A DNA stretch of 64,000 nucleotides from Escherichia coli (GTDB lineage: Bacteria > Pseudomonadota > Gammaproteobacteria > Enterobacterales > Enterobacteriaceae). The notes below the pieces were generated by a model. It was not told where the DNA came from and did no database searches. It saw only the letters and a list, made by a program, of their open reading frames with translations. The DNA lies in NCBI RefSeq assembly GCF_003991155.1, contig NZ_CP031293.1; one strand, written 5' to 3'. Shown piece after piece: positions 47,430 through 54,049 of this stretch; position 1 is the first letter of the stretch; each line of letters starts with the position of its first letter. Made by a program: the position numbers and the translations under genes.

Positions 47430-48914
47430 ATGCGAAAAATAATTACTCATTTCAAAGTTGTTTTAACGTTACTTCTACCAGTAACCGTATCTGCCCAGCA
47501 GATACAGTGGCAATCCTGTATGGCCAGTCAATTCAACCACTGGTTTGGTGAGGAAAAACCGTCTCCTGACTTACTATGTGGTTATTTGTCTGTTCCATTA
47601 AAATATACAGACACAGGCGGAGATGCTTCTTATGAAAAAAAATCACAAGTCAAACTAGCGTTGACAAAATTGCCGGCAAAAAGCAAGCATAAAGGAAGTA
47701 TCCTGATAATAAGTGGTGGTCCCGGGTTACCAGGCATAAATCCTTATATTAACTTTGACTGGCCAGTCACAAATCTTCGTGAGTCATGGGATATTATTGG
47801 ATTTGATCCTCGAGGCGTCGGACAGTCCACTCCGACAATAAACTGCCGGCAATCAGATACAGAGACTCAGGAAAACATAACCGAAAAGCAACAAGTATTA
47901 AATAAAATTAATGCCTGTATCCATAATACCGGAGCCGAAGTCATTCGCCATATCGGCTCTAACGAGGCTGTATACGATATTGATCGTATTAGGCAAGCCT
48001 TGGGGGATAAACAACTGACAGCCGTGGCGTATTCGTATGGAACTCAAATTGCAGCCTTATATGCAGAACGTTTTCCCTACAACGTAAGATCTATCGTTCT
48101 TGATGGAGTCGTCGATATCGATGACCTGGAGGACAACTTCACATGGCAACTCAAACAGGCACAGAGTTATCAGGAAACGTTTGATCGCTTTGCATCCTGG
48201 TGTGCGCGTACAAAAAGTTGCCCGCTTTCTTCAGACAGAGATAAGGCAATAACTCAGTTCCATGAGCTATTATCAAAATTACATCACAAACCTTTATTAG
48301 ACAGTAAGGGAGAAAATATATCTTCAGATGAACTCATATCATTAACAACAGACCTTCTGCTATGGCGTTCATCATGGCCAACCCTTGCAACTGCCATACG
48401 CCAGTTCTCTCAGGGGATTGTCAGTAATGAAATTGAAACTGCGCTCAGTGCTCCGATAGCCTCAGAAGAGTCAAGCGATGCTTCGGGGGTAATCCTCTGT
48501 GTAGATCAGGGGGATGAGCAATTAACACCAGAAGAGCGAAAATCCCGAAAAGACGCTCTTGCGAATGCCTTCCCGGCTATTAACTTTGACAATGGACGTT
48601 CCGATTCACCTGATTTTTGTGAATTATGGCCAATACATAGCGACCTGAACAAAACTCGCCTGAAAAATACTGTTCTGCCCTCTGGTTTACTGTTTGTAGC
48701 ACACAAATACGACCCAACAACGCCCTGGATTAATGCCCGTAAGATGGCAGAGAAATTTTCCAGCCCGTTACTAACAATAAATGGTGATGGGCATACATTA
48801 GCTCTCACCGGAGTTAATTTATGTGTAGATAAAGCAGTTGTACATCACCTGATCACTCCACAAAAAATAGAAAATATATACTGCCCAGGAAATTCTGAAG
48901 CAGAAATACAATAA
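47430..48914 (+). CDS. Putative secreted alpha/beta-hydrolase, S33 / TAP-like peptidase family
   Basis: 494-aa ORF with signal peptide (MRKIITHFKVVLTLLLPVTVSA), nucleophile-elbow-like YSYGT and a TAP-type C-terminal region (KYDPTTPW); occupies the K-12 appY position. Confidence 0.7.
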   Translation: MRKIITHFKVVLTLLLPVTVSAQQIQWQSCMASQFNHWFGEEKPSPDLLCGYLSVPLKYTDTGGDASYEKKSQVKLALTKLPAKSKHKGSILIISGGPGLPGINPYINFDWPVTNLRESWDIIGFDPRGVGQSTPTINCRQSDTETQENITEKQQVLNKINACIHNTGAEVIRHIGSNEAVYDIDRIRQALGDKQLTAVAYSYGTQIAALYAERFPYNVRSIVLDGVVDIDDLEDNFTWQLKQAQSYQETFDRFASWCARTKSCPLSSDRDKAITQFHELLSKLHHKPLLDSKGENISSDELISLTTDLLLWRSSWPTLATAIRQFSQGIVSNEIETALSAPIASEESSDASGVILCVDQGDEQLTPEERKSRKDALANAFPAINFDNGRSDSPDFCELWPIHSDLNKTRLKNTVLPSGLLFVAHKYDPTTPWINARKMAEKFSSPLLTINGDGHTLALTGVNLCVDKAVVHHLITPQKIENIYCPGNSEAEIQ

Positions 48915-48969: not shown

Positions 48970-49177
48970 ATATTCATATTTTTGTTATTCTTGTATGAAA
49001 TCGTCTCATGTACACGGTCCTTTTTTCGCCGAAAACTGATATTACTTTAATCAAAAGTTGACGTGCCAGATTCGAAGTAAATTTATAAAATATCAAATCA
49101 ATATACATTTTGCACCTTCGAGATAGTAATTGCTGTTACTGTAACATGAGTTACAAACAGCTTCATACCCAGAGCTA

Positions 49178-49396
49178 CTGATGTATCAACACGATTCAAC
49201 AATACCCGATATTTATTCCATGCCTCCAGCAACGATCTTTCTTCCTCCGTTGCGATTTCCCAGCATCCTGCAGTGGCGCAATATACTCACTGAATTCCTG
49301 GATGTAGAACTGTGTGGTGACGGTCTTCCAGCCATTCGGCTCCTGCTGTATCGAAGCATACCAGGCTATTTCAATATCGCTATGCTGCGGCAGCAT
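49178..49396 (-). pseudogene. Tail fibre assembly gene remnant (tfaX-like), frameshifted
   Basis: EYIAPLQDA matches the lambda Tfa C-terminal region as recalled; the rest of the Tfa C-terminus ([27 protein letters not shown]) is in another frame. Confidence 0.6.
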
Positions 49397-49452: not shown

Positions 49453-50121
49453 ATGGTGAAATTAATGAAAAAAAACACAGATGATGGGGCTAAAATTTAC
49501 ACACCACTTACCCTAAAGCTTTATGACTGGTGGGTTTTGGGAGTATCAAATCGGCTTGCATGGGGATGTCCTACAAAGGAACACCTTCTTCCACACTTTC
49601 TGGAACATTTAGGTAACAACCATCTGGATATTGGTGTTGGAACTGGGTTTTACCTTACTCACGTACCTGAGAGCAGTCTGATATCTTTAATGGATTTGAA
49701 CGAAGCTAGCCTGAACGCGGCATCTACAAGGGCTGGGGAATCAAAAATTAAACATAAAATTAGCCATGATGTTTTTGAACCTTATCCCGCGGCGTTACAT
49801 GGTCAATTTGATTCCATTTCCATGTTTTACCTTCTTCACTGCCTGCCTGGAAATATATCTACAAAAAGCTGTGTAATACGCAATGCGGCGCAGGCCTTAA
49901 CTGACGATGGAACTCTATACGGAGCCACAATTCTTGGCGATGGAGTTGTGCACAATAGCTTCGGTCAAAAACTGATGCGCATTTACAATCAGAAAGGCAT
50001 CTTTTCAAACACAAAAGATTCCGAAGAAGGCTTAACACATATACTCTCAGAGCATTTCGAGAATGTTAAAACCAAGGTTCAAGGTACTGTAGTAATGTTT
50101 TCCGCTTCAGGGAAAAAATAG
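49453..50121 (+). CDS. Class I SAM-dependent methyltransferase (ybcY-like prophage cargo), apparently intact
   Basis: 222-aa ORF with SAM motif I (LDIGVGTGF); sits between tfa remnants as ybcY does in K-12 DLP12. Confidence 0.75.
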   Translation: MVKLMKKNTDDGAKIYTPLTLKLYDWWVLGVSNRLAWGCPTKEHLLPHFLEHLGNNHLDIGVGTGFYLTHVPESSLISLMDLNEASLNAASTRAGESKIKHKISHDVFEPYPAALHGQFDSISMFYLLHCLPGNISTKSCVIRNAAQALTDDGTLYGATILGDGVVHNSFGQKLMRIYNQKGIFSNTKDSEEGLTHILSEHFENVKTKVQGTVVMFSASGKK

Positions 50122-50175: not shown

Positions 50176-50300
50176 TTACTCCCTGACAGGGTTCGTAGGC
50201 CACTCAATATCAGGTGCAGTTGATGTATCAACACGGTTCAGCAACACCCGATACTTCTTCCAGGCTTCCAGCAACGAGGTTTCTTCCTCCGTTGCATATA
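50176..50300 (-). pseudogene. Tail fibre assembly gene 3' remnant (tfaD-like)
   Basis: Translates to [33 protein letters not shown] (Tfa C-terminus) with stops immediately upstream in frame. Confidence 0.6.
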
Positions 50301-50313
50301 CAGCTCACTTTTT

Positions 50314-50607
50314 TCACCCACGATTAACCAACAGCCAGACCAGCAGACACGCCACCACCGGCACAGCAAAATCCATCAGACTTGCTACATCCCACGCGCG
50401 CGGATCAAAACCGCCCCACCACGGCATATTCATTCGCTTGCCATGCCCGAACATTTCAATCCAGCGATATTCTGCCTGGGTGTGTTCACGCGCAATGAAG
50501 AACGTACAACCGGCTATCGCCCCGTAAACCCAGTTTCCGGTAAAAAGACCAATCAGTACCTGCGCAGCCACAGCACAAAGCGCATGAAGAAAAGGTGTTA
50601 TATCCAT
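50314..50607 (-). CDS. Hypothetical small membrane protein (97 aa), prophage tail-fibre region
   Basis: Track ORF with two or three hydrophobic helices, tightly packed after the 234-aa gene; no family recognised. Confidence 0.5.
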   Translation of the reverse strand: MDITPFLHALCAVAAQVLIGLFTGNWVYGAIAGCTFFIAREHTQAEYRWIEMFGHGKRMNMPWWGGFDPRAWDVASLMDFAVPVVACLLVWLLVNRG

Positions 50608-50617
50608 TACTCCTCCT

Positions 50618-51322
50618 TTATCTAATATCGCTTCGGGAAGTTAATAACAACTTTAATTCTGACTCAAGTTCATCAACTCTTTCAGTCAGTTTCTGGATAT
50701 GGTGAATCAGTGGAACAACCAGACGTTCGTACATTACACCTTCGGCAACAAGGCCATTGCTGGAAATAGCTTCAGGAGCATCATCTTCGTTAGCTGGTCG
50801 CCAGTGTACAAACTGAGGAGCAATTTCTCCTACTTCCTCGGCAATCAATCCGTAGAATCCCCAGTCACGCCTGTCATTTTCGCATTGCGACCTGTACCAC
50901 ACAGGGCGCATCCTGAAAATGAGATCGGCGTGCTCTGAATCTATTGTCTCTACTGAATGTTTATAGCGGATAGACGATGTTGACCGCAGCACAGACGAAA
51001 TTGCAGGGTCAGGATTAAGATAAAGGTTTGCCGCCGCTGTAGTCGTGGCCAAATTCCATAAATAAAACGCTTCACGACCTGTCAGTGGATAAAAATCTCC
51101 GCCATAACGACCACTTTCCAGATCGTTCACTTCCACTTTGTTTTTCAGCTTATTATCAACTTCAGTTTTTGTGTATCTGGAGCTGATATCCTGCTTTGCA
51201 CTGGTCATCTCAGTCTGAAGCGTTGATACTTTTCTGCTAATTGATGAAATATCTTCCTTAGCTTTACTGACATCTCCCTTTAGCTTGGTGATATCTCCTG
51301 GAATTACTGTCGATGTAGCCAT
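50618..51322 (-). CDS. Hypothetical fibre-like protein with a C-terminal S74-type intramolecular chaperone-like domain
   Basis: 234-aa ORF; motif SSIRYK then MRPVWYRS and GLIAEEVGEIAPQFV resembles the self-cleaving chaperone domain of phage fibres and spikes. Confidence 0.55.
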   Translation of the reverse strand: MATSTVIPGDITKLKGDVSKAKEDISSISRKVSTLQTEMTSAKQDISSRYTKTEVDNKLKNKVEVNDLESGRYGGDFYPLTGREAFYLWNLATTTAAANLYLNPDPAISSVLRSTSSIRYKHSVETIDSEHADLIFRMRPVWYRSQCENDRRDWGFYGLIAEEVGEIAPQFVHWRPANEDDAPEAISSNGLVAEGVMYERLVVPLIHHIQKLTERVDELESELKLLLTSRSDIR

Positions 51323-51331
51323 TTTTCTGCC

Positions 51332-51613
51332 TCACATCCAGCCACGAAGTTGATGCTCAACAACAACCGCGTATTTATCGAATATTGACGATTTTTTTGC
51401 ATCATTAATGATGCGCACGTTTACAAAATATCCATCTTCCTTAACACATACCGGTTCGCCATCTTCAGTCAGCTCTCCGGTTTCTTTGTACACGTTACCT
51501 ATCACGTCAATAAGAATATCATCCTGCATCGACTCGTCATCATAATAACCAGCACTCTCCATAAAGGTCGAAAAGTCGGCCCTGTCGGCAAATTTGAGTG
51601 TTAAATCTTTCAT
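51332..51613 (-). CDS. Hypothetical small acidic protein (93 aa), coupled to stf
   Basis: Start codon overlaps the stf stop at 51613; Asp/Glu-rich; no family recognised. Confidence 0.5.
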   Translation of the reverse strand: MKDLTLKFADRADFSTFMESAGYYDDESMQDDILIDVIGNVYKETGELTEDGEPVCVKEDGYFVNVRIINDAKKSSIFDKYAVVVEHQLRGWM

Positions 51614-53985
51614 TAGATTGACTCCCCCACCTGAGCATCAGTCAATGCCTTGTGCCATATTCTGAAATTCCTGACATGACCAAATAAATGACGTAACCCG
51701 GCTGTAGTCTGGCCTCCAATACGGATAATTGCGGTGTTCTGAATATAGGACCATGTGGTTTTTGTTTCGCTGGATATACGCCCGTTACTTACTGAGCACG
51801 TAGACTGATCTGACTTTACACGCATCCCCATAACCATTTTTTCAAGCAATGCGTTTTCGTTTACCCGTCTGTTAGCTCCTCCAATATCGCAATAAGGAAA
51901 TCCGTCGTAATCTGTTGAATGACCGAAGCCAAGAATAATAGCCGCTCCGGTTTGATGACCGCCGGTATCAAAAACACGCGGTGCTGCATTTGGCGTTTTA
52001 TACCAGTTCTTATGTACCTCACAAAGAACCGTAAAAGGAAGATTATAAAGGTTATTCTTGATTGGGACTGTCACCATATCGCTTGCGCGGGTCGCTGCCG
52101 TCGTTTCTGATATAATAAAAGATGATGCGCAAGGGCCATTTTCAACCTGAGGGGTGGACAGGAAAATATAATCTCCCGATTCAACGACACCACCTTCTTT
52201 TGGTGCGTATTGTATTGCCGAGGTTATGCAGGACTCGTCAATTGCCTGAATCGTTGCCTCTGCAAAAATCCAGCCCGTAACCTCATCCTTGTTAACTCGA
52301 GCAGTGAGCCTGTCGGCAGCTACACCGGTGATTTCAACCGATAAAGACCGCGTATTAACAATGGCATATCCAAGATTAGATGAAGCGCTGCCATCGAAGG
52401 CTTCAAACCTGATCCTTAACCGGAGTTCCAAATCCGTTTTAAATCTGCACGATGTCGTCACACACTTATTATCGCCTGATACATCGACAGCCCCGGTTAC
52501 TGTAACTGACGCCATGTTAACAGGAGAGGTTTTCCCAATCAGAGAATCGTTACAGACAAATTTTCCATAAGTAAAACCAAAACTATCCGTCCCGGTTTCG
52601 GGCACATCCATATTTACCGACTTGCCCCAACTGGCAGGGGTTTCCGAATTGAGCATGTAGTTCGTTCTCTGACCCTCAATAAGCAGGCCATCACGTTCAA
52701 ATCGTGGCTCGTCAATGGCAGCCTCTGTCAGCACACCAGATTTATTAATATAGGTTGCTTTCGATGCGCGTTTAAACTTTACAACCTTATCGCCAGGCAT
52801 CGTTATTTCATCATCACCAATAACAATCTTTTTATATGATGGCGAAAACCCCGTAATCATATCCAGTGAATCGTTAAACGGTATCCACACATCAGGCAGT
52901 GGCTGTAAGACATATTTATACGGCTCTGCTGCCTGACTTGCATACTCTCTGGCTGCGTCTTCACTTGCTTTTGCAGCGGTCTGGCTTGCAGCGGATGCTT
53001 TCGCCGAGTTCGCCGCTGCAGTCTCGCTTGTCTTTGCATTGGTTTCACTGGTTTTTGCTGCTTTTTGACTGTTGGCTGATGCAGTGGCAGAAGCAGCCGC
53101 CGCACTTGCAGAACCAGCTGCGGCACTCTCGCTTTGGGCTGCTGCATCCTGACTGTTTTTCGCCGCAGTTTCGCTGGCTTTAGCATTCGTTTCGCTGGTC
53201 TTCGCTGCCGTCTGGCTGGACTTTGCGTTGGTTTCGCTCGTCTTCGCTGCTTTCTGACTGTTAGCCGCAGCAGTTGCTGATCCAGCTGCTGAAGTCGCAG
53301 AACCGGCTGCTGCGCTCTCGCTTTCAGCTGCTGCAGCCTGGCTGTTTTTCGCCGCAGTTTCACTGGCTTTAGCATTCGTTTCGCTGGTCTTCGCTGCCGT
53401 CTGGCTTGACTTTGCGTTGGTTTCGCTCGTCTTTGCTGCTGTCTCGCTATTTTTCGCGTTGGTTTCTGATTTTTTGGCTGCTGTCGCGGAATTTGCCGAT
53501 GCAGTCTGTGAGGTCGCTGCCGCCTGTGCGCTGTTAGCTGCATTCGTTTCTGAGGTTTTCGCCGCGTTCTTCGATGATGCCGCTGCAGTTTCGGATTTCT
53601 TTGCCGCCGCTGCGCTCTGAGAGGCGGCTTCGGCGTTGCGTGCCACTTCTTCCACCATTGCCTCAAAACGACGCAATGCCTCCGGCATGACATCATCTTC
53701 CGTCATGGCACCGAGAAAATCATTCAGCGTACCTGGTCTGGAGCCTTCATAGACGGTAATGGTCCCAGCATGTGAAGGCGGAAAACCTTCAACCAGCAGG
53801 GTGACGCTGTACTGGCCATACTCAACATCCATGCTGTAACGTCCGGCTTCATCCGGATTTTCAGAAGCCACCGTGTTCACCAGTACCGTGGTGCTGTTAC
53901 GCTTTGCCTTCAGTTGAATAGTGCAGTTCTGTATTGGTTTTCCCGCACCATCTTTCAGCACACCTGAGATTTTTACTGCTGCCAT
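51613..53985 (-). CDS. stf: Side tail fibre protein Stf (lambda-like N-terminus, repeat region, distinct distal domain)
   Basis: N-terminus MAAVKISGVLKDGAGKPIQNCTIQLKAKRNSTTV matches lambda Stf as recalled; Ala/Ser/Thr-rich AAKTSETNAK repeats in the middle. Confidence 0.85.
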   Translation of the reverse strand: MAAVKISGVLKDGAGKPIQNCTIQLKAKRNSTTVLVNTVASENPDEAGRYSMDVEYGQYSVTLLVEGFPPSHAGTITVYEGSRPGTLNDFLGAMTEDDVMPEALRRFEAMVEEVARNAEAASQSAAAAKKSETAAASSKNAAKTSETNAANSAQAAATSQTASANSATAAKKSETNAKNSETAAKTSETNAKSSQTAAKTSETNAKASETAAKNSQAAAAESESAAAGSATSAAGSATAAANSQKAAKTSETNAKSSQTAAKTSETNAKASETAAKNSQDAAAQSESAAAGSASAAAASATASANSQKAAKTSETNAKTSETAAANSAKASAASQTAAKASEDAAREYASQAAEPYKYVLQPLPDVWIPFNDSLDMITGFSPSYKKIVIGDDEITMPGDKVVKFKRASKATYINKSGVLTEAAIDEPRFERDGLLIEGQRTNYMLNSETPASWGKSVNMDVPETGTDSFGFTYGKFVCNDSLIGKTSPVNMASVTVTGAVDVSGDNKCVTTSCRFKTDLELRLRIRFEAFDGSASSNLGYAIVNTRSLSVEITGVAADRLTARVNKDEVTGWIFAEATIQAIDESCITSAIQYAPKEGGVVESGDYIFLSTPQVENGPCASSFIISETTAATRASDMVTVPIKNNLYNLPFTVLCEVHKNWYKTPNAAPRVFDTGGHQTGAAIILGFGHSTDYDGFPYCDIGGANRRVNENALLEKMVMGMRVKSDQSTCSVSNGRISSETKTTWSYIQNTAIIRIGGQTTAGLRHLFGHVRNFRIWHKALTDAQVGESI

Positions 53986-54049
53986 ATCCACTCCACAAAA
54001 AAGCCCGCCTGAACCGGCGGGCTGTCATAACACTGTGTTACCTGGCTAA

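Follow-up and report, generated by a model that had tools for sequence, protein, structure and literature searches.

A short tail-fibre protein with a C-terminal S74 chaperone domain in an Escherichia coli lambdoid prophage and its probable place in a composite side tail fibre

At its tail-fibre end, a lambdoid prophage of Escherichia coli encodes a protein of 234 amino acids (aa), probably a distal branch subunit, in its shortest known allele, of a side tail fibre built from several proteins. The gene lies on the minus strand, at positions 50618-51322 of a 64,000-nucleotide stretch of contig NZ_CP031293.1 (assembly GCF_003991155.1), and the whole of this stretch is called the window here. In the favoured reading, the S74 intramolecular chaperone (IMC) domain at the C-terminus of the protein would trimerise the chains, each chain would cut itself between T115 and S116, and the remaining product would dock on the 792-aa side tail fibre (Stf) encoded two genes upstream. 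That the protein belongs to a tail fibre is already indicated by the Prokaryotic Genome Annotation Pipeline (PGAP), Pfam and PHROGs, and the assignment of the domain is routine. What is added here is the cassette context, which was followed across temperate lambdoid phages and virulent T1-like, Dhillonvirus and T5-like phages, together with a conserved peptide that may act as a plug.

The open reading frame (ORF), as given by the ORF list and its translation, occupies exactly the positions at which an earlier note, made from the sequence alone, had placed it without naming a strand, and it runs from an ATG start to a TAA stop. Its product is identical to WP_000235975.1, which the PGAP annotation of identical DNA names "tail fiber domain-containing protein". 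It also matches positions 1147-1383 of the 1385 positions of the PHROG 3299 profile (E = 9.5e-138), and with the ORF and the PGAP label this match describes the whole gene (50618-51322) as coding for a distal tail-fibre protein with a C-terminal S74 IMC. The ORF is a real gene and not a stray fragment, because it has its own ribosome-binding site (GAGG, 7-8 nucleotides (nt) upstream of the start), begins 9 nt past the stop of the preceding 93-aa gene, has a ratio of nonsynonymous to synonymous substitution (dN/dS) of 0.23 and has full-length orthologues, 56-60% identical, in virulent T1-like phages. The ratio was obtained against the copy in phage IdasGreatGrand and shows that the gene is under purifying selection. 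Of 5,426 complete E. coli genomes, 739 (about 14%) carry the gene with coverage of at least 80%, and derivatives of E. coli B have a copy that is 99.9% identical. NCBIfam gave no match, and PADLOC no defence-system match, for the 234-aa protein, the 93-aa protein or the 97-aa protein encoded next to them. A literature search by accession found no paper that mentions WP_000235975, and papers on lambda Stf engineering and on escape from cyclic-oligonucleotide-based antiphage signalling (CBASS) in Drexlerviridae are not about this gene.

The C-terminal half of the protein (residues 116-234; 50621-50977, minus strand) is confirmed as an S74 IMC domain by sequence profiles, by a relative of solved structure and by the predicted fold, which agree with what the earlier note had suspected. 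The hidden Markov model search against Peptidase_S74 (PF13884), which had been suggested as a check, gave a significant match of residues 116-172 to model positions 1-57 of 58 (E = 2.2e-5), and the same family is precomputed for close homologues of the protein. The motifs that had been quoted are all present, with SSIRYK at residues 116-121, MRPVWYRS at 138-145 and GLIAEEVGEIAPQFV at 158-172. Among sequences of the PDB, a single-sequence phmmer search matched the C-terminal end of 8hqz_d, which is the L-shaped fibre of DT57C, a T5-like phage (E = 2.7e-6), and a profile of 36 relatives improved this match to E = 3.2e-8. For that profile, 8hqz_d was the sole match among PDB sequences. T5 pb1 (4UW8), 3GW6 and 3GUD were not detected by it because they are too divergent, and the last two were recovered by fold only. 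Relatives are numerous: among 1.84 billion representative proteins, phmmer returned 3,505 at E <= 1e-3, of which 1,588 reach E <= 1e-10, and chance can be dismissed as the source of the match. In the 203 of these relatives that were examined, the matched domain lies at the end of the protein (a median of 1 residue follows), and in the 234-aa precursor, too, the IMC stands at the extreme C-terminus.

An AlphaFold2 monomer was built on 36 homologues and reached a mean pLDDT (predicted local distance difference test) of 78. The S74 region was modelled with a pLDDT of 82-98 for residues 121-234, and it consists of a mixed alpha/beta body and a long C-terminal helix at residues 198-233. This helix corresponds to the coiled-coil-like segment that had been noticed at the C-terminus. 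When the model was compared with the PDB by Foldseek, the best match was the MyRF ICA (7dc3, E = 2.6e-5, 26% identity), and the next ranks were taken by the IMC of the K1F endosialidase (3gw6) and that of the GA-1 appendage (3gud), so that the top three matches are all intramolecular chaperones.

The predicted autoproteolytic site spans 50960-50980 on the minus strand and comprises T115 (50978-50980), S116 (50975-50977) and K121 (50960-50962). HMMER pairs STSSIRYK of the 234-aa protein with GTSGIEYK of the T5-like fibre 8hqz_d, and T115-S116...K121 is aligned with Thr1263-Ser1264...Lys1269 of T5 pb1. T5 pb1 is cut between Thr1263 and Ser1264, with Ser1264 and Lys1269 proposed to carry out the catalysis, and an S1264A mutation keeps the chain whole; the further catalytic surroundings include Arg1250 of the neighbouring chain and an Asp1239 oxyanion hole (PMC4690869). 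By alignment, the cut in the 234-aa protein would separate T115 from S116, K121 would serve as the base, and 115 N-terminal residues would remain, which is the length that the earlier note had expected. S116 and K121 are invariant in both homologue alignments (A1 and A2), and their equivalents are kept in 197 and 199, respectively, of 200 mapped relatives. R113 is nearly invariant in both alignments as well, and its equivalence to the Arg of T5 and K1F would need a trimer model.

The gene is the third member of a tightly packed trio that consists of a fibre head, a protein of about 92 aa and a third gene, and this trio recurs in lambdoid phages (for example, IdasGreatGrand), in Drexlerviridae (T1-like), in Dhillonvirus (KarlBarth) and in T5-like phages (HMD-P4 and IrisVonRoten/Bas32). 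For the T1-like phage PeterMerian/Bas05, the identities are 55% for the Stf head, 45% for the 92-aa protein and 56% for the 231-aa third product. The family of the ~92-aa protein, PHROG 1361, is found in 181 phage records from lambdoid phages, Drexlerviridae, Dhillonvirus, Nonagvirus/Seuratvirus, T5-like phages and Vequintavirus, and its gene always stands right after a lectin-headed fibre gene. The third-gene products always open with M-x-T-x-T-x-I-P-x-D-I-x-x-L-K. In phage genomes searched by tblastn with a 24-aa consensus, some 110 records contain this motif, and in every case checked the ~92-aa gene stands immediately upstream of it. A profile search with residues 1-46 yielded nothing but fragments of at most 80 aa, which carry no information on architecture.

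The part after the motif is swapped from one cassette to another. The 234-aa product of the window has a coiled coil, a small tip and the S74 domain, and the 231-aa product of T1-like phages has the same layout. The 333-aa product of HMD-P4 has a different distal region and a divergent S74 domain, the 574-aa IrisVonRoten Gp24 has two receptor-binding domains and an S74 domain, and the 98-aa KarlBarth Gp30, which is followed by Gp31, has no S74 domain; in the comparison of third-gene products, the N-terminal motif is the sole similarity for these three. Exchange at the same site was also counted in 80 IMG/VR prophage loci picked by the 93-aa gene, 68 of which are informative because the contig continues. 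All that the 93-aa alignment brought up were near relatives from E. coli prophages (88-98% identity), so these loci serve for the counting of alleles and not as a measure of diversity. A gene that starts with MA[TI]STVIP lies 9 nt downstream of the 93-aa gene in all 68 informative loci. It encodes 234 aa in 38 loci, 227-233 aa in 6 and 346 aa in 22, and alleles of 90 and 299 aa occur in one locus each. In the 346-aa allele, a globular domain of about 200 residues is joined by a separate S74 domain, in which the motif reads HSDRDLK. In all these sequences, a conserved N-terminus is combined with exchangeable distal parts. An oddity of KarlBarth (L087, 3770-4649) should be mentioned here: the 98-aa gp30 overlaps a 196-aa gp31, a "putative tail fiber protein" without an S74 domain, and the distal fibre of this phage has either been split or frameshifted, or it is made in two parts.

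Within the 234-aa protein, residues 1-20 (MATSTVIPGDITKLKGDVSK; 51263-51322, minus strand) make up the conserved N-terminal motif and, given its conservation across third-gene products, the putative docking peptide. Seven cassettes from five phage groups agree at all of its positions M1, T3, T5, I7, P8, D10, I11, L14 and K15, and between the lambdoid and the T1-like copies the peptide is 80% identical. The coil that follows is far more variable, with an identity of 19% for residues ~21-47 in the same comparison. It belongs to an alpha-helical coiled-coil stalk at residues 10-47 (51182-51295, minus strand), which AlphaFold2 models as a helix with a pLDDT of 90-96. Short repeats resembling D-[IV]-S-x-[IL]-K make up the stalk; their number differs among homologues, and homologues of 221-269 aa vary by insertions and deletions in this region. 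Residues 48-115 (50978-51181, minus strand) would form a small distal tip that ends at T115 and is kept on the mature protein, as its homology to the ends of Stf-type fibres suggests. T93, T94 and N99 of the tip are invariant or nearly so in the homologue alignments, and R113-T115 are also among the most conserved residues. The lambdoid and T1-like copies are 66% identical over residues 66-115 and 72% identical over residues 116-175.

The tip and the chaperone are not confined to short proteins. Residues 44-234 match the extreme C-termini of fibres of 539-1243 aa (P0064-P0071) with 51-60% identity. Four of these long fibres were checked (P0064, P0066, P0070 and P0071); all four have tail-fibre N-terminal PHROG domains, and two have the same Stf N-terminus as the 792-aa fibre of the window. 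Since residues 44-234 end long Stf-type fibres, tip and chaperone can be regarded as a mobile fibre-end module, which in the 234-aa protein is fused to the putative N-terminal plug and not to a long shaft. No receptor-binding domain is found between the N-terminal anchor and the chaperone, where the coiled coil is followed by only about 50-68 residues of tip; sister third-gene alleles have globular domains of about 200-400 residues. The phrase "unusually small fibre or adaptor" of the earlier note is fair in that the predicted mature length of 115 residues stands against a median of 281 aa among Met-starting relatives and against fibres of 333-574 aa elsewhere at the same site. It goes too far if it is taken to mean unique, because 105 residues are predicted for the T1-like phages and other S74 proteins of about 220-240 aa exist. 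The predicted mature product is at the short end of the range and not alone there.

A close parallel is found in the T5-like phage IrisVonRoten (Bas32). Its genes Gp22-Gp23-Gp24 have the same order as the cassette of the window, with the Stf being 53% identical to Gp22 and the 93-aa protein 37% identical to Gp23, and Gp24 has an N-terminal MxTxTVIPxDITKLK and a C-terminal S74 domain, as does the 234-aa protein. Gp22 ends in a galectin-like domain, and Gp24 is a "T-shaped" fibre, the attachment of which to the proximal fibre Gp22 was predicted by AlphaFold-Multimer (BASEL, doi 10.1101/2024.09.12.612763). However, Gp24 has 574 aa with Gp12-like and T5-like receptor-binding domains, whereas the 234-aa protein has neither of these and is about 340 residues shorter; moreover, IrisVonRoten is a virulent T5-like phage, and the present gene belongs to a lambdoid prophage. 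A protein with the position and the termini of Gp24 and without its receptor-binding domains can therefore be taken as a minimal variant of this type. The same principle, in which a second fibre with an S74 domain rides on a first by means of a short conserved N-terminus, is described for LtfA/LtfB of DT57C and gp14/gp15 of phiEco32 (PMC4728585). LtfB differs in being a full-size fibre that binds O-antigen, and the locus of DT57C, as described there, comprises two ltf genes without mention of a gene of about 92 aa.

The L-shaped fibre pb1 of T5 resembles the 234-aa protein in its C-terminal S74 domain, in the exact alignment of the scissile Thr-Ser and of the Lys five residues on, and in the coiled-coil helix, presumably trimeric here, at the end of the domain. 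It differs in its size, with a mature fibre of 1,263 residues and a bullet-shaped receptor-binding domain of about 290 residues against a predicted 115 residues in total here, and in its attachment, because pb1 is joined directly to the tail collar, whereas the 234-aa protein has a different N-terminus that is common to distal branch fibres. The K1F endosialidase CIMCD (3GW6), the GA-1 gp12 IMC (3GUD) and the MyRF ICA (7DC3) share the fold and the Ser-x-x-x-x-Lys motif, but what precedes the domain there is a large tailspike or appendage body or a transcription factor. The 346-aa sister allele (PHROG 4563, "tail fiber protein") is closest in its setting, with the same locus, the same 9-nt spacing, nearly identical first 20 residues and an S74 end. 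In this allele a globular domain of about 200 residues replaces the coiled coil and the mini-tip, and the relationship between the two S74 domains is distant (25% identity over 67 residues).

The following course of assembly is proposed. The S74 IMC (residues 116-234) would set three chains in register and nucleate the folding of the tip (residues ~48-115) and the coiled coil (residues ~10-47). Once the trimer is folded, each chain would cut the T115/S116 bond by means of Ser116 and Lys121, and the 119-residue chaperone would leave. The mini-fibre of three 115-residue chains could then attach by its MATSTVIPxDIxxLK peptide to the 792-aa Stf, which would be the proximal fibre that carries it, possibly with the help of the 93-aa protein. 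In this way, a small second tip, which may bind a receptor, would be added beside the lectin-like head of the Stf. A further speculation, to which we give little credence, is that the 115-residue stub is no degenerate fibre but a purpose-built "blank" or a mini-adhesin for a conserved glycan, swapped with receptor-binding alleles at a universal MxTxTxIPxDIxxLK socket on the lectin-headed Stf in at least three families (lambdoid, T1-like and, judging by the cassette, T5-like). It is equally speculative that the released chaperone has a second role, such as helping to assemble the Stf head or the 93-aa protein.

Several observations weigh against the proposal that the protein is a distal fibre branch. 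Trimerisation, cleavage and docking are inferred, and the structure model is that of a monomer. In this model, residues 67-110 are poorly predicted (pLDDT 42-52), as would be expected of an intertwined trimer, and the neighbouring-chain Arg and the Asp of T5 and K1F have no mapped counterpart. With only about 50-68 residues and the 66% identity given above, the tip is unlike a hypervariable receptor-binding domain and may thus be structural rather than receptor-binding. The docking role of the 93-aa protein is uncertain, because in the Vequintavirus EmilHeitz this protein occurs without a motif-bearing gene directly downstream. Lastly, the BASEL annotation of an orthologue reads "putative lateral tail fiber chaperone".

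This annotation, which is given to the orthologues in PeterMerian and KarlJaspers, leads to a different explanation, in which the 234-aa protein is not part of the virion and its S74 domain folds and trimerises the 792-aa Stf in trans. The mature part is indeed very small and conserved, and the gene occupies the usual spot of a lambda-type tfa gene, with tfa remnants just downstream. Yet the characterised S74 examples considered here act in cis on the residues just upstream (PMC4690869), and the most conserved upstream residues here (T93, T94, N99 and R113-T115) are within the same polypeptide. The Stf ends in a lectin-like head and not at an S74 cleavage motif, and neither NCBIfam nor Pfam gave a match to a Tfa family, while the PHROG matches are all to the C-termini of fibres. 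Furthermore, the same N-terminal motif is carried by full receptor-binding proteins of 346, 333 and 574 aa and by KarlBarth Gp30, which has no S74 domain, and this speaks for the N-terminus as a module for docking, as opposed to a part of a chaperone. On balance, a chaperone acting in trans is quite unlikely.

A virion subunit could also fill the distal docking site without binding a receptor, as a cap or a spacer, and leave the recognition of the host to the Stf head. The distance of only about 50-68 residues from the coiled coil to the cleavage site would suit such a part, as would a tip that is conserved and not variable and the presence of a globular domain of about 200 aa in the sister allele at the same site. 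However, long Stf-type fibres in which no other binding domain is obvious end in the same tip, and the conservation of this tip may equally mean that the receptor is conserved, such as the lipopolysaccharide core. A subunit of this kind, a variant of the favoured reading, is unlikely in our estimate. A decayed fragment, namely, the 3' remnant of a long tail-fibre gene left by recombination in a defective prophage, is close to refuted. It could explain why the match is limited to the C-terminal end of PHROG 3299 and of the 539-1243-aa fibres, and the end of the prophage does hold fragments of tfa and dinI. Against it stand the protein's own conserved N-terminus, start codon and ribosome-binding site, the 9-nt spacing kept in 68/68 informative loci, the full-length orthologues in compact genomes of virulent phages, the dN/dS of 0.23 and the intact copies in 739 genomes. 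Consequently, the pseudogene or fragment reading was rejected on the grounds of synteny, selection and conservation.

If the peptide of the distal fibre branch is a docking plug, it would offer a natural junction for the construction of chimeric receptor-binding fibres on lambda-, T1- and T5-type particles. The 234-aa allele would also be the smallest natural scaffold, with 115 mature residues, for the study of S74-dependent trimer folding and release. If the speculation about a universal socket holds, socket and plug would be a natural and portable system for switching the host range. With the gene in about 14% of complete E. coli genomes, a correct functional label would mend many annotations, including that of a "lateral tail fiber chaperone".

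Over 19.5 kb, the window and E. coli strain 2016C-3878 have identical DNA. The gene is located at the tail-fibre end of the lambdoid prophage, which adjoins ompT-envY-ybcH-nfrA, and the order on the minus strand is J (1,159 aa), lom, the 792-aa Stf gene, the 93-aa gene, the 234-aa gene and the gene of a 97-aa membrane protein. All six stand on this one strand, with spacers of 9-10 nt or overlapping stop and start codons. Between lom and the Stf gene lies a strong terminator-like hairpin (54002-54023, minus strand; 8 bp, 7 of them GC, followed by a T-run), and the fibre cassette is therefore probably expressed by antiterminated late transcription.

The Stf gene (51613-53991, minus strand) matches PHROG 1419 over its full length and, at residues 437-636, the GTA_spike_fiber domain of NCBIfam. 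Its product has a lambda Stf-type N-terminus, an Ala-rich repeat shaft and a lectin-like C-terminal head. The sequence MAAVKISG... matches the N-terminus of lambda Stf, and the GTG start that is listed is probably two codons too early. In the window, the Stf is intact as one ORF of 792 aa; in the PGAP annotation of the identical NZ_CP029747.1 it is divided into three pieces, two of which are labelled as pseudogenes or incomplete, and the Ala/Thr/Ser-rich repeats of the shaft are suspected of having misled the annotation. The shaft, with repeats of the AAKTSETNAKSSQT type (52857-53696), also gives rise to long spurious ORFs on both strands, such as one of 279 aa rich in Arg and Gln, and these are not genes.

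The 93-aa gene (51332-51613, minus strand; PHROG 1361), the cassette partner of the 234-aa gene, has a start that overlaps the stop of the Stf gene (TAATG). Its product has no Pfam or NCBIfam match, and its AlphaFold2 model, although confident, has no convincing fold relative; it may be an assembly factor or a connector. On the other side of the 234-aa gene, the 97-aa gene (50314-50607, minus strand; PHROG 1443) starts 10 nt after the stop and has a strong AGGAGG site. It also follows the orthologue in phage IdasGreatGrand and is missing from the T1-like and T5-like cassettes. The arrangement suggests that it is co-transcribed with and translationally coupled to the 234-aa gene, which does not imply that its product belongs to the fibre. 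The 97-aa product is a predicted membrane protein and, judged by eye, apparently has hydrophobic segments that look membrane-spanning; it could be a lambdoid-specific moron or an exclusion protein.

Past the cassette, two remnants of tfa genes and a dinI fragment are annotated by PGAP in the identical record (about 49098-49378 and 50176-50295), which suggests that the present cassette took the place of an earlier stf-tfa module by recombination. At the end of the prophage, convergent with the fibre operon, lies an intact gene (49453-50121, plus strand) of a 222-aa class I S-adenosylmethionine-dependent methyltransferase (PHROG 2132, E = 7.9e-157), which we take to be ybcY, a pseudogene in the DLP12 prophage of K-12. 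Between the prophage end and ompT there is a gene (47430-48914, plus strand) for a 494-aa alpha/beta hydrolase, which matches the PADLOC model PDLC01094 ("C3a206, TAP-like protein", E = 6.8e-56) and the N-terminus of which, judged by eye, is hydrophobic and resembles a signal peptide.

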